64,000 nt of DNA from a virus. Taxonomy: Duplodnaviria > Heunggongvirae > Uroviricota > Caudoviricetes. The stretch lies in IMG/VR virus record IMGVR_UViG_2563366825_000011, positions 9,000 to 72,999 of that record; one strand, written 5' to 3'. Below, one piece after another: positions 53,101 through 59,100 of this stretch; within the stretch, counting starts at the first letter, position 1; each line of letters starts with the position of its first letter. A program made the position numbers.

Positions 53101-56100
53101 CCGAGGCTTTGGCACCATCACTGACTGCCTTACCGGTTGCTTTCAGACCTTCACCGACAGTATCAGTGACCGCGTTTTTACCTGTTCCATCGGGAATGTT
53201 TTTAATCGCATCTCCAACAGAAGGTGGCGCGCCCAGTTCCTTTTGCGTGGAGGAAGGCGGCATGTAAACATCCGTCATGAAAGACGACAACCCGGCAAGC
53301 GTTTTTACAGGATTATTTACAAATCCATCACCGAGTCCACGGACCATCTCCCCTGTTCCCCGGACGGACTGGGAGAAACCTTTACCCATTGTTGGCAATA
53401 CATCACCGAGGCTGAACGATGTGCTGTGATCAATGGCATTCTGCGGGTTGCTGAAAAAATCCTGCCAGTAATTTTCTCCCGGCTGCTTAATGTTCAGGCT
53501 GCTGCGGTTCTGGTTACCCAATTGCGCTTCAGGGCGCTGCTCATCTGAAAAAGCCATACAGACTCCAGTAAAAAAAAGCCCGACACGATGGTCGGGCGTA
53601 AGTGAACGATATTAACGGGGAGCGCGTTACTGCCGCGTAACTTTACTTCATCCAGCCTCTGATCTCTTCGGCTGATGCAGCAGCGCTATAATTCTTCGCT
53701 TTTTCCTGTTCGGCTTTTTTATCCCGGAGGTGATTCTGGTACCAAATTTCCAGTTCCTTTTCACGCCCCGGTTCCAGCAAGGCTGGCATATTGGCGGCAG
53801 TCGCTTTGACAAACTCCAGTTTGACCGGATCGCCCTCCGCCCAGGTCTGCCCCTTCTGTAAAAGCTGTTCAAATTTCTGTTGCTGAATTTTCTGCTGATA
53901 TTCCGGTAAACCATGCGCAGCTAAAAATTCATCCCTCGCAGCCTGAGCATTACCGCCGTTCTTGATCGCTTCCGCTGCTACCTGGCTGGCTTCTTTCTGA
54001 ATATCTTTCAGAGAAAGCCCCTCCTGCTTCGGCGTGAAATAACCGAAATTTTTCGAAATTTCCGCGAATTTACTGCGATCCCTGACAAGCTCAACAGCCT
54101 TATCAACAGGCACCGCCAGCACGGTTTGATCATCCGGATGTGCACTGCCGTATTCTGTTACAGGTTTATGCGCGGTGGAGCCATCGCTGTATGTGAGATC
54201 AAGGCCAATAAGTACGTACCCTTCCTGCTGCGCCGGTACGATACTGCCAATCCTGGCCTCTTTTATCGTCTTTTTCCCGGTTGAATCGGGCATGCCAATA
54301 CGCTGTTGCAGTTCCGGGGCAAACACACCAGAAAGCGCATCAAGACTTTCCGGGGTATTGAGTGAAGCGATCGCCCTGTCCGGCTTGTCATCAAAGATTT
54401 TTTGCAGGTTGTTCACGGCCTGACCCGCTTTCGCTACATAGCCATCATTCGCCATCAGCCTCAGCGGATTACCCTCTGACAACTGGCCGTAAAGACGCAT
54501 TGCGGCATCCCGATCGCCAGCATCCACAGCCTTTCCAAGCGCCGCCATCACAGGCTGATCGCGCGCCAGCATATCGTTATACTCAAGCCGTCGCTGGTTG
54601 TATTTCTGCATCCGGAGTCGCTGCTGCTCCATACCCAGCGACGCATTCCGGTAATTCTGCGCTGCGGCGTGTTCCCTCTCTTTCAGCGCATATTCACGAT
54701 CGGCATTTTTGACATTAAGATCATATGTACGCTGATCATTTTCCTTTCGATGCTCAAACTGCGACTGCGCAAATTCAAAATCGCGCTCGTTATTTTTCTG
54801 TTGTTGAGCAAGCTGTGCTTCACGCAGACCAAGCTCCTTACGACGGGTCATGGCCTGGTCAACGGTGCTGAATCCGGCAAGTAACCCCTGTGCAAATCCG
54901 CTCATTCACCACTCCTTAAAACAACGAGCCAGCAAGACCACCTATGACAGCACCAATAGCCGCACCGGGGAGACCACCAACGGCAGCGCCCATAGCCGCC
55001 CCCGTACCAATGCCCGTACCGATATTCTGCTTGTTCTGCGCTTTCTGTTGCGCCGCCATCTGCTTGTTAGCAGCCTCAATTTCTTCACGTCGCCTGTCGG
55101 CGTCACTTATTCCCTGTAATGCCTCTCGACGTGACTGATTCGCAATATCCAGTAAACCGTATCCCATATTTCCTCCTTAAGCTGACACCAGTTGTCCGCC
55201 AACACTCAGTTGCTGTCTTGCAGGTGCAGAAGCCCCCGTCAGTATGTTCATCTGACGATCCTGCTCTGCTTCACGGATACCATTTTTCGCGCCAGCAATT
55301 GCCAGGGCATTACGTAACCCCAGCGTATTACTGTTGGGATTATCAGGTCGGTTAACGCCATATCGTGCCATCTGGTTATCCTGCGCCATCTGCGCTGTAC
55401 GGAGACTGGAAGTGGCAAGGCCGCCCACCCGGGCAAGCTGCGCATTCATCAGGCTGTTGTTCTCGCCAAGGTCAGCCAGCCTTGCCACGCGGGGCAAATA
55501 TCTGGTTCGCCAGTCGTCGTATTGTTGGCGTGTCAGCGCTGCTGACGTCTGCCAGTCACCCTGTGGGCGGGCTGCTCCTGAATAACCAGCCCTTGCGAGA
55601 GTTTCGTATTTACCGTACTCCATAATCACAGTCTCCAGTTCTGAGCCTGATGCTGAATGGCATTAGCGCCGGTGCCAGGTGTTTTAGCACCGCCACTTCC
55701 TCCGCTACCGCCAGCCTTATGCATCGCATATGCACCAACCGCACCCAGACCAGCGCCAACAAGAGAGGCTCGCCCCTGCTGTTTCGTAAACGCAGCCTGT
55801 GCGTCCGATTTGGCTTTTGCCAGACTGCTGTCAGCCAGGGAGTTAAAACTCTGTAACGCATCTGCCTTCTGACCGGAACCGAGAGCCGCAACATCCTGTA
55901 GCCCGGCAATATATTTATCTGCCTGCGATACCTGCCCCCGTGTGGTCGTGTCAATCTGCCCGATCACCTGGTCGCTTTGATTTGCATCCATTACTGCATT
56001 AAAACGACCACTGGATGGGTCAACGCCGGACTGAGCAAGATTACCCGCCAGCTCCCTTCGCGCTTCACCAAACTGTTTCTGATACCCAAGATTTGTTGTG

Positions 56101-59100
56101 CCTGCGATATTTTCGTACTGCTGCTCACTGTTAAGGTCATCGACCTTTTTCATGAAGTTATCTTCTGCCGGACGGAGAATATTTTTGTAATCCTGCCACC
56201 CTTTCCAGGCCACCTCTTCCTGTGCTATTTGCGCTGCTGTTGGTTTTACTTTGGTATCACCACCACCTTTACTTCCGCCCATAATGGCTCCTCAGATAAC
56301 AAAAAACCCTGCCGGAGCAGGGTCAGAATGTGAATTGCAATGTGGGTTTACGCTCGATGATGAATACAGTGGCAGTCAGACTGCTATCCTGAACACCATG
56401 AAGCCATCCTCATCATCCGGCATTCGCTCAAAGCCCAGACGTTTTCCCAGCCGGATAAATCCTCGTCTTGCCGTATGAAATTCGGCCCAGCGTCCGCCAG
56501 CCAGGCGGGTTAATGTCTTCACCTCCGGCAGATAACGCTCAACACTCTTACTCCCCGTACACACGCCCAGTAACACCAGAACATAAGGGATACCATCGTC
56601 ACTGAGCACAGAACGCAGCACCAGAAAACCATCCGGCGCTTCAAAGCAAAACGCCTGCTTTTTAAGGCAGGCGTCTTTAACTTCATTCATAAATTCAGGG
56701 TTGCGGGAATTTCTCACAACACGCTGCATATACCGGAGAATTCTGTCGTCCATTCTCTCACCTGAAACGGGTGCCATATCGGCTGAACCTCAGCAACCAG
56801 TTGACGGGGACTTTCGTCCCCGTCGCGGTTTTCCTACTGCTTACACTGTAAGAACGCCGCAAACTCCGCTCCCCACAAATTCAGCCGGAACTCACACAGC
56901 GAACCGTGTAACATCCAGATGGTGAAGATTACCGTCATGCAAATTGTGACGGTGATAAGCGATTTTTGCGACATAGCGCTTGCCTCCTGAGTGGAGAGGC
57001 GCTAACCTTCTACTTGTCAAGGAAAGAAGTGTCAGGGCCTCGGGTTAACGTTAAAGTTGACTCGGGGCCTTTCCACATCAGGCCTTCAGGTTCACCTTCC
57101 AGCCATCAGCCGAAAGGCACCCGCGCATAATCTACGATTTTTGCCCTGCACGGGCAACAAAAAACCCGCCATCACAGCGGGTTATGACATGTTGTCGGGT
57201 ATTACTCAGAATTTCAGGCCAATGCCTACAATAACCCCACTCGTGCGCCAGTCACCGGATCCGGAGCTTTCATACGCGACATCCATAGCAACACTTTCAT
57301 TCAGGTTAAATTGTGCACCAGCAGCCCATGCAAGTGCTGTTTTTTTAGTACTCTTGCTTTCAGAAAAACTACCGGCACCATGATTAAGATTGTCGTTAAT
57401 TTTCAAGTCAGTGGTGACTTTTGCAACCCCCATACCAGCCATTGCATACACACTGAGGTATTCGTTAAACCGCCACGAAGGACCGGATAGTAGACTCCAG
57501 TAATTAGCCCTGATATCAGTTCTCGCTGAAGCTGCCGGATTTTTAACCTCTCTGGATTCATCTCCTGGGTTAATATCAATAAATGCCTGCGCATTAGTCA
57601 TAGAACGCACCCATGTAAAAGATGTTATAACACCAATCTCATCCGTTATCTCATAACGATACCTGATGCTCATCCCCTGAGGAGATTTGCCTTTGCCATC
57701 ATGCCCCCGGACAGAAGCATCTGCATATTCGCCTGAATTGAAGTAGTGTCTGTTTGTAAAACGGTTAAAAGTATCAAGATTATAAAGACTTAAATCCTTA
57801 ACAAAATTGTTCAGTCCAGAGAGCTGAAGATGAGCGTATCCGAAAGAAACTGTACTGTCACCTTGTGCTGCACAGGCAGGGGCTGCTACAAAACTCATCA
57901 CAAAAGTTGTGCACGCAAAAATAATTCTGGCATGTTTCATTTTTAGACTTTTCCTATAATAAAATAACCCCGTATTATCTAAGATGAATTTAGTTTTATT
58001 ACTTAATATTCATACTGACAGGCATATCAGTCATATATTGATGAATTAATGACCAGCACTTTATCTATATACGGCTTCCGAATATCCCATGTTGCACGAC
58101 CGGAATAATGCTCACAGGAATATATTTTATTTCCTGTAGCCCCCGTTGATGTGGTGTAAATCGGTCGGTCATAAGGTGTACGCTGCCAGTTATAATACCC
58201 AACCAGTGCAGGCATAATTGCACATGGATATCCGAGATCTTTTTCAAATTTGATATCAACAGGTATTAACTTCGCGTCAAGCAGCATCATTTCGCCATGG
58301 TAAATCATCTCACCCGACGGGTTATACATGGCAATACCATACTCAGAAGGTTGAGTAACCATATTCGCAAAAGCATAAACAGTCGTAACACCAGGATTCG
58401 TTCCCCTGACAATTTGATGAAGCCTTAAGGCATGATATCCATCAATCTGTTCATGTGTGTACATGACATCGGCCTTTTTCTCTGTTCTGATAAAGAAAAA
58501 ACAACTTTTTCCTGACGGGATTGATGTTTTAAAAAAAGCCTTCTCAGTCGCCGGAATAGTTCCCTTATTGATCAGACACTGAGGCGTAAACCCCGGGCTT
58601 ATCCACAAGCTGCCATCTGGTTTCGTAATGCTTAAACCATACATACAACTCACCCCCAGAATGTATAAATATATGATCCCATCCCCTGCTCAAGATTCGA
58701 CCATGTCACCGTATTGCCATTAATGGTTATCTTCGGTACTTTCCGGTCCTTAAATACATTATTCCACGGAAATAATGAACAGACTGCCTGTAATGTTTTC
58801 CCTTCTGGTTTATTCGTATACGTTTTTGATCCCGACTCCGACGTAAATCTGTCCAGGAAAAATATGGGAGTAAGCACGCCCGTAACATTAACATTGTTTC
58901 TGTTGTATATTGCAAAACCATATTCTGCCAATGTCAGCCTCCGGCTCAGCTTAACCTGCCTATGCGAACAGCCAGGCGTCCGTTCTGGTCATAAACTTCA
59001 ATTTTATCATTGCGGATCACCAGCCCAACATTCTGATTAGAGTAACGAATTGTCAGTTGCCCCTGCGACGTAACACTAAAAAGGCCACCAATATTCAGGT

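Follow-up and report, generated by a model that had tools for sequence, protein, structure and literature searches.

The stretch of DNA analyzed here, in the following called the window, comprises 64,000 nucleotides (nt) of the IMG/VR virus record IMGVR_UViG_2563366825_000011 (positions 9,000 to 72,999 of that record). Its minus strand carries, upstream of a giant open reading frame (ORF), a block of four small genes which are the subject of this study. The surrounding sequence represents the distal part of the late region of a short-tailed lambdoid prophage that belongs to the 933W/Sp5/phi24B type (Sepvirinae). The genes and signals of the locus, given in the order of the minus strand and with protein sizes in amino acids (aa), are as follows:

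56376..56777, minus strand: 133-aa ORF (phrog_610; Sp5 ORF75), first gene of the conserved cassette
56305..56324, minus strand: terminator-like hairpin between the 133-aa and 218-aa genes, an 8-bp stem followed by TTTTGTT
55626..56282, minus strand: 218-aa ORF (phrog_611; Sp5 ORF76/ECs1238; phi24B gp51), orthologue in virions
55722..55769, minus strand: uncharged Gly/Ala segment, residues 172-187 of the 218-aa protein, ASLVGAGLGAVGAYAM
55177..55623, minus strand: 148-aa ORF (phrog_596; Sp5 ORF77; phi24B gp50), orthologue in virions
54916..55167, minus strand: 83-aa ORF (phrog_594; Sp5 ORF78; phi24B gp49, labelled "bacteriocin")
54919..55023, minus strand: glycine zipper, residues 49-83 of the 83-aa protein, with a GxxxG ladder from G52 to G80
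53643..54905, minus strand: 420-aa ORF (phrog_601; Sp5 ORF79/ECs1241; phi24B gp48), orthologue in virions and essential for infectivity
54522..54896, minus strand: predicted continuous alpha-helix, residues 4-128 of the 420-aa protein, ~19 nm
53570..53597, minus strand: intrinsic-terminator-like hairpin and T8, 10 nt upstream of the Shine-Dalgarno sequence and start codon of the giant ORF
53100..53960, unstranded: hypervariable block comprising the 3′ end of the 420-aa gene, the spacer and the 5′ end of the giant ORF
45173..53557, minus strand: giant 2794-aa ORF (Sp5 ORF80; phi24B gp47), last gene of the cassette

Each of the four proteins matched one PHROG family of unknown function from end to end (E 1.7e-42 to 2.5e-186), and the DNA of the block was found in 196 phage records as well as in 1551 of 5426 complete E. 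coli genomes. Together with the mass spectrometric detection of orthologues described below, these matches identify the four ORFs as real genes and not as chance ORFs. A preliminary description of this DNA had listed four tightly packed ORFs at these coordinates, and they are indeed present on the minus strand, with intergenic gaps of 2, 9 and 10 nt and a GGAG-type Shine-Dalgarno sequence at each start. For the second ORF two alternative start codons exist, namely GTG at 55629 (150 aa), which turns the 2-nt gap into a 4-nt overlap, and ATG at 55623 (148 aa), the latter being used by RefSeq in a genome of 99.9% identity.

Nucleotide comparisons identified PhiR12_3 (97%) as well as ArgO145 and Shiga toxin (Stx) 2a phages (91-92%) as the best phage matches. 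In phi24B the orthologous genes are located at 46475-49117 and have the same sizes as in the window, the identity of the encoded proteins to gp51, gp50, gp49 and gp48 amounting to 95.4, 96.6, 91.6 and 73.6%, respectively. In Sp5, ORF75-80 (ECs1237-1242) encode proteins of 133, 218, 148, 83, 421 and 2793 aa (Mondal 2016, PMC5155283, Table S1), and the primers used for the Sp5 deletions match the window at the 218/148 junction and at the beginning of the 420-aa gene, with one mismatch each. Sp5 ORF76-ORF80 and phi24B gp51-gp47 are orthologues of the window genes, alike in order and size (218/148/83/421/2793-2811 aa; 74-97% protein identity), with the difference that the window contains a rarer allele of the 420-aa C-terminus and giant N-terminus, common to ArgO145 and PhiR12_3. 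The published genetics of Sp5 (PMC5155283) and proteomics of phi24B (bioRxiv 10.64898/2026.04.10.717836) apply directly to these orthologues.

Analysis of CsCl-purified phi24B virions by liquid chromatography-mass spectrometry revealed gp47, gp48, gp50 and gp51 among 15 candidate structural proteins, with estimated copy numbers per virion (portal = 12) of 20-48 overall and of ~23 for gp47, ~37 for gp48, 36-48 for gp50 and 22-27 for gp51 (bioRxiv 10.64898/2026.04.10.717836). These values resemble the 12/12/30 reported for P22. In the same preprint the structure-derived abundance of all four proteins is given as "ND", and the modelled tail density is fully assigned to the portal, two adaptor rings, the nozzle, lateral fibres and the needle (bioRxiv 10.64898/2026.04.10.717836). 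The orthologues of the 218-, 148- and 420-aa proteins and of the giant are hence present in virions and absent from the ordered shell and tail. The 277- and 509-aa homologues of GP4 likewise do not appear in any PDB entry. The orthologue of the 83-aa protein, gp49, was detected weakly, at an intensity of 6, which equals that of the likewise dismissed Lom (bioRxiv 10.64898/2026.04.10.717836); the authors discounted it as a contaminant on the strength of its annotation as a bacteriocin homologue, no other ground being given. As outlined below, this annotation is misleading, which suggests that gp49 was wrongly discarded. The 133-aa product does not occur in the virion tables of phi24B and apparently is not a virion protein. 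An ejection role was proposed by the phi24B authors for gp47 only, with gp48, gp50 and gp51 never being discussed (bioRxiv 10.64898/2026.04.10.717836), and a search for the locus tags of these genes in a paper on gene expression in phi24B lysogens gave no match. Comparable data exist for the Bcep22-like phage JC1, of which gp64 (332 aa), gp67 (196 aa), gp68 (510 aa) and the DarB-like gp69 (4515 aa) are virion-associated; the corresponding genes occupy corresponding positions in a GP4-like gene order, that of gp64 being the position of the 218-aa gene (PMC9144972). Homologues of the 218-aa protein from BcepIL02 (P0494) and Ralstonia phage UAM5 (P0453) carry virion-associated names as well.

In-frame deletion of ORF79 (421 aa) or ORF80 (the giant) in Sp5 yielded neither plaques nor lysogens, a defect that was complemented in trans, while DNase-resistant DNA was present at wild-type amounts and heads were normal (PMC5155283). 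The 420-aa orthologue and the giant are accordingly required for infectivity and not for packaging. Deletion of ORF76 (218 aa) markedly reduced infection and lysogenization, and ORF75, ORF77 and ORF78 were individually non-essential (PMC5155283). When loss of infectivity without a defect in head assembly or packaging is taken as the hallmark of an ejection protein, the 420-aa orthologue fits, although tail-fibre labelling was lost too, the 218-aa orthologue fits in part, and the 148- and 83-aa orthologues individually do not. Neither of the two papers gives the three small proteins a role (PMC5155283; bioRxiv 10.64898/2026.04.10.717836).

The grouping of these genes extends far beyond the Stx phages. 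A tblastn search with the 420-aa protein identified distant homologues in the Aeromonas phage phiARM81mr and in about 100 Vibrio phage records, and a profile search against 1.84 billion cluster representatives yielded 204 members of the 420-aa family, with contigs available for four of them giving five loci (L014 to L018). A second, word-index protein search using an Aeromonas/Vibrio/GP4 profile returned Aeromonas sequences only. The gene order, with approximate sizes of 130, 220, 125, 80 (glycine zipper) and 420-700 aa followed by the giant, is found in the window and in eight further lineages of the nine examined, the Ralstonia phage GP4 being the lineage with a rearranged version. The sizes are 119, 212, 124, 85 ("bacteriocin"), 466 and 3190 aa in phiARM81mr and 131, 201, 117, 77, 467 and 3066 aa in Vibrio D60, where an HNH gene is inserted ahead of the 467-aa gene. 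At the five loci they are 142/220/106/79/502/4342, 103/225/124/80/554/4206, 133/225/124/80/554, 124/222/128/63/436 and 131/228/135/93/705/1155 aa, the giant being cut at the contig end in the third and fourth of these. Hidden Markov models of the families support orthology position by position (E 2e-7 to 3e-59), with the exception of the 705-aa protein of L018, which was matched only by a larger family profile (E 9.8e-9). Orthologues by position of the 133-aa ORF are likewise present in phiARM81mr, D60 and L014 to L018 (E 2e-7 to 1e-33). Because GP4 and the Bcep22-like phages have an acetyltransferase at this position, a small GNAT was considered for this ORF and dropped, as neither hhalign nor Pfam supported it.

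A giant polyvalent gene is present in every lineage with a readable downstream gene. Its content varies by lineage (one version has SNF2, Eco57I, helicase and LPD39 domains), while the small genes are constant. In the cases with identifiable upstream genes (window, L015, L016, L017 and GP4), the cassette follows the nozzle and needle genes. GP4, the closest structural relative of phi24B (bioRxiv 10.64898/2026.04.10.717836), has in this place a GNAT, a 277-aa protein, a PAPS reductase, a 509-aa protein and a 3224-aa DarB-like giant, and the 277-aa protein joins the N-terminus of the 218-aa family (MGGKGGGD) to a GxxxG tail at its C-terminus that resembles the one of the 83-aa family. The four genes were previously described as one unit; their grouping with the giant is conserved, but the unit also takes in the upstream 133-aa gene.

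The 83-aa protein consists of a helical N-terminal half and a 35-residue uncharged C-terminus, in which glycines at positions 52, 56, 60, 64, 68, 72, 76 and 80 form a GxxxG ladder of seven consecutive steps. The Kyte-Doolittle maximum of this zipper, taken over 19 residues, is 1.69, and the zipper is kept in the homologues of phi24B, Aeromonas and Vibrio phages and in L014 to L018. The match to the Pfam family PF13441 (Gly-zipper_YMGG) scores 28.1 bits against a cut-off of 28.9, with the repeated GxxxG motif itself being unambiguous. At least one member of the cassette, the 83-aa protein, therefore contains a segment of the membrane-inserting type. By contrast, Bacteriocin_IIc (18.2 vs. a cut-off of 27.1; E 0.0025) and E492_microcin (14.5 vs. 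a cut-off of 50; E 0.04) match the low-complexity Gly/Ala stretch only, and the zipper stretch also weakly matches a tape-measure PHROG (E 0.0086). The "bacteriocin" annotation of this protein is thus misleading and is corrected by the present analysis. None of the four proteins has an obvious N-terminal signal peptide, as judged by inspection with no predictor used. In phage Stx2a_F723 a divergent, longer version of the gene encodes 97 aa (L011 2197-2490), and its 5′ part shows 53-57% nucleotide identity to the window, which indicates allelic variation of the mini-protein.

The 218-aa protein starts with a Gly-rich N-terminus (MGGSKGGG). Its 16-residue Gly/Ala segment is uncharged and contains one GxxxG, but has a 19-residue Kyte-Doolittle value of 0.94, which is below the transmembrane range. 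The segment, which is kept in Aeromonas and Vibrio homologues, is followed by a GGSGGSGG stretch and ~20 further residues, ~30 residues in all. Two of the proteins had been described as ending in glycine-zipper membrane segments; this is convincing for the 83-aa protein, whereas the segment of the 218-aa protein is of low hydrophobicity and not terminal. A comparison of the 218- and 148-aa families by hhalign gave a probability of 93% (E 2.9e-7) over ~100 residues, and in sequence terms the 148-aa protein is paralogous to ~100 residues at the N-terminus of the 218-aa protein. This paralogy might explain why deletion of ORF76 is leaky and deletion of ORF77 silent. In some members of the 218-aa family (P0508 and relatives, 380-401 aa), a Peptidase_S74 domain (PF13884) takes the place of the Gly-rich tail. 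This intramolecular chaperone normally drives the trimerization of phage fibres and is then cleaved off, and its presence in these relatives hints at a trimeric state.

For the 420-aa protein an AlphaFold2 model based on a 79-sequence alignment reached a mean predicted local distance difference test (pLDDT) score of 88.2. The model shows the uninterrupted helix of residues 4-128 listed above, a helical bundle, a small beta domain (213-266) and C-terminal helices. Heptad a/d positions are occupied by 17 hydrophobic residues, compared with 12.0 +/- 1.3 in shuffled sequences (one register), so that the earlier characterization of this protein as coiled-coil rich was broadly right, given the 125-residue predicted helix and the a/d excess. 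The most conserved N-terminal positions of the family, the nearly invariant G7 and G11, lie in the N-terminal peptide GxAxGFLAGF, and such a Gly/Phe-rich peptide at the tip of a predicted ~19-nm helix may, in an analogy of our own, be likened to viral fusion peptides. Two database sequences were left aside: P0261, an apparent fusion of the 83- and 420-aa proteins, has a truncated zipper and a frameshifted-looking tail and is probably an artefact of assembly or decay, and P0281 (1386 aa), which has a 420-family N-terminus and no similarity to the window giant in the rest, was uninformative.

The giant contains the Pfam domains LPD5, LPD1, MuF_C and LPD38, and this content marks it as a "polyvalent protein", a class predicted to be injected together with the DNA (Iyer et al. 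2017, PMC5512222). Its junction with the 420-aa gene is hypervariable. At 53100-53960, an interval running from ~105 codons before the end of the 420-aa gene through the spacer to ~150 codons into the giant, nucleotide identity to phi24B falls to 49-75%, while the flanks are 90-100% identical. Among eight phages compared, the core of this block (53893-53420; 420-aa C-terminus, spacer and first ~46 giant codons) falls into two linked allele classes, and the sequence of the window at an indel inside the giant (53300-53213) is common to PhiR12_3 only. A second short dip in identity occurs inside the giant at about 50860-51000. The linked variation would fit an interface at which the 420-aa protein and the giant dock, but is only suggestive, because adjacency alone could produce it.

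The spacer within this block contains a hairpin (53597-53578) with a 7-bp GC-rich stem, followed by T8. The hairpin is kept in the divergent allele (F723, phi24B), the changes in the stem being compensatory. Although the terminator described earlier at 53570-53598 is present, it does not split the block functionally from the giant ORF, since block and giant are co-conserved and both belong to the late operon; by analogy with other lambdoid phages we infer that this operon is Q-antiterminated. Further terminator-like sites are located after lom (57183-57163) and, as listed above, between the 133- and 218-aa genes (56324-56305). The giant start annotated for phi24B in GenBank (L006 9149) and the 2811-aa ORF of the preprint start ahead of the conserved hairpin or inside it. 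The ATG that follows the hairpin and a GGAG (window 53557), which is used in F723, ArgO145 and RefSeq, looks like the true start.

Taken together, the four genes, the 133-aa gene and the giant ORF probably constitute the internal-virion ("ejection") cassette of a T=9 podovirus prophage of the 933W/phi24B type. The resemblance of the block and the giant ORF to the ejection or internal-core protein sets of short-tailed phages, noted in the preliminary description, is supported by orthologues that occur in virions outside the ordered capsid and tail, by an essential 420-aa orthologue and by the co-inheritance of the giant. On this interpretation, the genes would be expressed late, from the putatively Q-antiterminated operon, and the 218-, 148- and 420-aa proteins, and probably the 83-aa protein, would be packed in tens of copies in the capsid or tail lumen together with the 2794-aa protein. 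Upon release of the needle at the cell surface, we infer, the cassette proteins exit via the tail, either before the DNA or along with it. Membrane insertion would then fall to the 83-aa glycine-zipper protein and perhaps to the Gly-rich segment of the 218-aa protein, while the 420-aa protein might act as a ~19-nm helical rod that spans or braces the periplasm with its conserved GxxxG tip and engages the variable N-terminus of the giant through its own variable C-terminus. In concert, the proteins would allow the DNA and the giant to cross the envelope.

By analogy, the closest counterpart of the block is the cassette of phage N4, where gp52 (150 aa), gp51 (644 aa) and gp50 (3500 aa) form a demonstrated ejection cassette in a T=9 podovirus (PMC13434306, PMC11445570). 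Comparison of full and empty N4 particles placed gp51 near the portal and the N-termini of twelve gp52 copies in the tail lumen, and both proteins form membrane channels (PMC13434306, PMC11445570). The window resembles N4 and DEV (Schitoviridae) in a late operon that proceeds from small to mid-size to giant (~3000-3500 aa) genes downstream of the tail-tube and plug genes, and in a multi-domain giant, delivered into the host in those phages, whose small partners in N4 are membrane-active, with one in the tail lumen. It differs in that neither sequence similarity nor a fold match exists between the proteins, in that the cassette comprises four small proteins and a non-virion 133-aa gene instead of two, and in that the giant is a polyvalent LPD5/LPD1/MuF_C/LPD38 protein and not an RNA polymerase. 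To T7 gp14-gp15-gp16 and P22 gp7-gp20-gp16 the block is likened by adjacent late genes for a ~200-aa protein with a membrane segment, a 430-980-aa all-helical protein lacking transmembrane helices and, last, the largest protein, as well as by tens of copies per virion and a requirement for infectivity and not packaging. Here, the differences are the lack of homology, the lack of a detected lytic transglycosylase domain and of a reported core stack in phi24B, the individual dispensability of two members of the window type, and a hydrophobic element that forms a separate 83-aa glycine-zipper mini-protein. The Dar system of P1 (DarB with Hdf, DarA and DdrA) also has a giant multi-domain protein that travels in the phage head and enters the host together with the DNA, along with co-packaged accessory proteins (PMC5512222), and DarB-like giants occur in GP4 and Bcep22-like relatives; P1 is a myovirus, however, its accessory proteins appear unrelated and are not arranged like the present cassette, and the window giant has no methylase or helicase domains by Pfam.

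Several points weigh against an ejection role. A literature search found no published experiment that shows any of the four proteins leaving the virion or reaching the host envelope. Searches of PDB sequences with single sequences and family profiles of the four families and the GP4 homologues gave nothing relevant, hhalign revealed no similarity to N4 gp51 and gp52, and fold searches with the 420-aa model revealed no similar fold. Sequence or fold similarity to the families of T7 gp14/gp15/gp16, P22 gp7/gp20/gp16 and N4 gp51/gp52 was thus not detectable. Such a lack of homology to solved ejection proteins is not unusual, because gp15- and gp16-like proteins have been matched across podoviruses by size and synteny and not by sequence (Swanson et al. 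review). For the 218-aa protein, the hydrophobic segment is weaker than transmembrane strength and the AlphaFold2 monomer is unreliable (pLDDT 46.7; 52-sequence alignment). The 148- and 83-aa genes (ORF77, ORF78) are each dispensable in Sp5 (PMC5155283). The copy numbers obtained for phi24B by mass spectrometry are rough, and cassette proteins were abundant in a preparation that nevertheless contained ~40% emptied particles (bioRxiv 10.64898/2026.04.10.717836). Lastly, Sp5 particles with deletions of ORF79 or ORF80 did not bind anti-tail-fibre antibody (PMC5155283), on account of which Mondal et al. assigned both genes to "tail formation".

This last observation, full heads without tail-fibre antibody, also speaks for the view that the 420-aa protein, and perhaps the others, are structural components of tail assembly or the tail lumen that help to construct or finish the short tail, for instance as a plug, ruler or scaffold in the tail or portal channel, and have no part of their own in a conduit across the envelope. 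The ~19 nm of the predicted 125-residue helix come near the 22 nm of the phi24B tail, material inside the tail that acts as a core is mentioned in the phi24B preprint, and one source names a close homologue "tail tape measure protein". We nevertheless consider this view unlikely. In the phi24B tail no density is left over once the portal, two adaptors, nozzle, fibres and needle are placed, ~30 copies per virion are high for a lumen plug, and neither Pfam nor NCBIfam yielded a tail-assembly or tape-measure match for the 218-, 148- and 420-aa proteins. Clear homology to tail-assembly proteins was not found for any of the four, and orthologues are present in virions. As for the Sp5 phenotype, an ejection protein of N4 sits partly in the tail lumen, which makes a tail defect compatible with ejection and offers a way to reconcile the two. 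A different possibility, itself compatible with the ejection cassette and one to which we attach a modest probability, is that the small proteins are Dar-like adaptors that recruit, fold or retain the giant in the procapsid, with the giant crossing the envelope by itself. Hdf, DarA and DdrA do such a job for DarB in phage P1. In favor of it, the cassette always precedes a giant with lineage-variable domains, deletions of ORF79 and ORF80 have the same phenotype, the 420-aa C-terminus and giant N-terminus show linked variation in a single block, and DarB-like giants are found in GP4 and Bcep22-like phages; yet simple recombination also predicts linkage of adjacent variable segments, the glycine zipper and GxxxG tip point to membrane activity rather than chaperoning, and the P1 accessory proteins have no homologues in Bcep22-like phages according to the JC1 authors (PMC9144972).

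The third view is that of a membrane-active effector module, the alternative named in the preliminary description, or of a bacteriocin or toxin module, carried as lysogenic-conversion cargo with no function in the virion. It might draw on the "bacteriocin" label of the 83-aa protein in several records, the weak Bacteriocin_IIc and E492 microcin matches, and the adjacent lom and hok, which are genuine morons. These matches, however, are below the curated cut-offs and restricted to low-complexity Gly/Ala sequence; Pfam, NCBIfam and PADLOC scans of the four proteins gave sub-threshold low-complexity matches for the 83-aa protein only and no meaningful PADLOC match. Moreover, there is no leader or signal peptide and no export or immunity gene near the cassette, the genes are located in the structural module beside nozzle and needle genes in all lineages, and orthologues are found in virions, one of them being essential for infectivity. 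A toxin module therefore appears very improbable.

A broader reading than the ejection cassette of this one phage type, which we offer as speculation and hold to be rather unlikely, would regard the conserved small proteins as a general, modular protein-injection adaptor of T=9 podoviruses of the 933W/GP4/Bcep22 type across Proteobacteria. The 420-aa protein might then be a "spear" resembling class I fusion proteins, in which a ~19-nm helical rod with a GxxxG tip like a fusion peptide would extend to the inner membrane, its rapidly evolving C-terminus docking the N-terminus of any giant polyvalent effector present, with the zipper mini-protein and the 218/148 pair forming a pore. If true, this would amount to an ejectosome architecture unrelated to those of T7, P22 and N4 and specialized for interchangeable megadalton cargo. 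Even for the cassette as such, should it turn out to be an ejectosome with neither sequence nor fold in common with the T7, P22 and N4 types, the same problem would have been solved independently. Shiga toxin genes are spread among E. coli by short-tailed Stx phages, and how the DNA of these phages and a ~310-kDa polyvalent protein cross the envelope is the question on which the cassette bears. It is now directly testable with the existing Sp5 mutants and phi24B preparations, for which the 218/148 paralogy, the long helix with its GxxxG tip and the variable block across the 420-aa C-terminus and giant N-terminus provide leads. Whereas the genes, their virion association and the essentiality of ORF79 were already known, the explicit placing of the small proteins in an ejection cassette, the wide distribution and constant gene order of this cassette including the 133-aa gene, the 218/148 paralogy, the structure predicted for the 420-aa protein and its variable junction with the giant are new.

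Upstream of the cassette, the window encodes a needle-like Phage_Tail_Tip protein (422 aa), a 208-aa protein, Lom and a Hok/Gef toxin, which agrees with the earlier statement that the block stands after lom-like and fibre-like genes. This location is unremarkable, because in relatives without lom and hok, both of which are moron insertions, the cassette directly follows the needle gene. The toxin ORF, located between lom and the cassette (56834-56974, minus strand), encodes 46 aa of the Hok/Gef type (MSQKSLITVTICMTVIFTIWMLHGSLCEFRLNLWGAEFAAFLQCKQ) and is labelled Hok/Gef or "MokW-like" in related records. Upstream of it, at 56963-57122 (minus strand), lies a match to the Rfam sok/hok-leader family that remains below threshold (41 bits vs. 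a gathering cut-off of 59).

On the other side, directly downstream of the giant and at the apparent end of the prophage, a 174-aa ORF with a SocA/Panacea antitoxin domain (E 2.5e-19) is located at 44498-45022 (minus strand); in strain SCU-104 the giant gene adjoins yfdC instead. The left two-thirds of the window contain Rfam matches to two cspA-type 5′ untranslated region thermoregulators, a sok antitoxin RNA, DicF and two copies of sRNA-Xcc1 (7040-7425, 9935-10327, 18496-18667, 24254-24305, 39742-39830 and 40279-40364), a set typical of a Qin-like cryptic prophage and its surroundings. Two tandem ORFs of equal length (808 aa) at 34421-36847 and 36905-39331 (plus strand) are presumably paralogous chromosomal genes.

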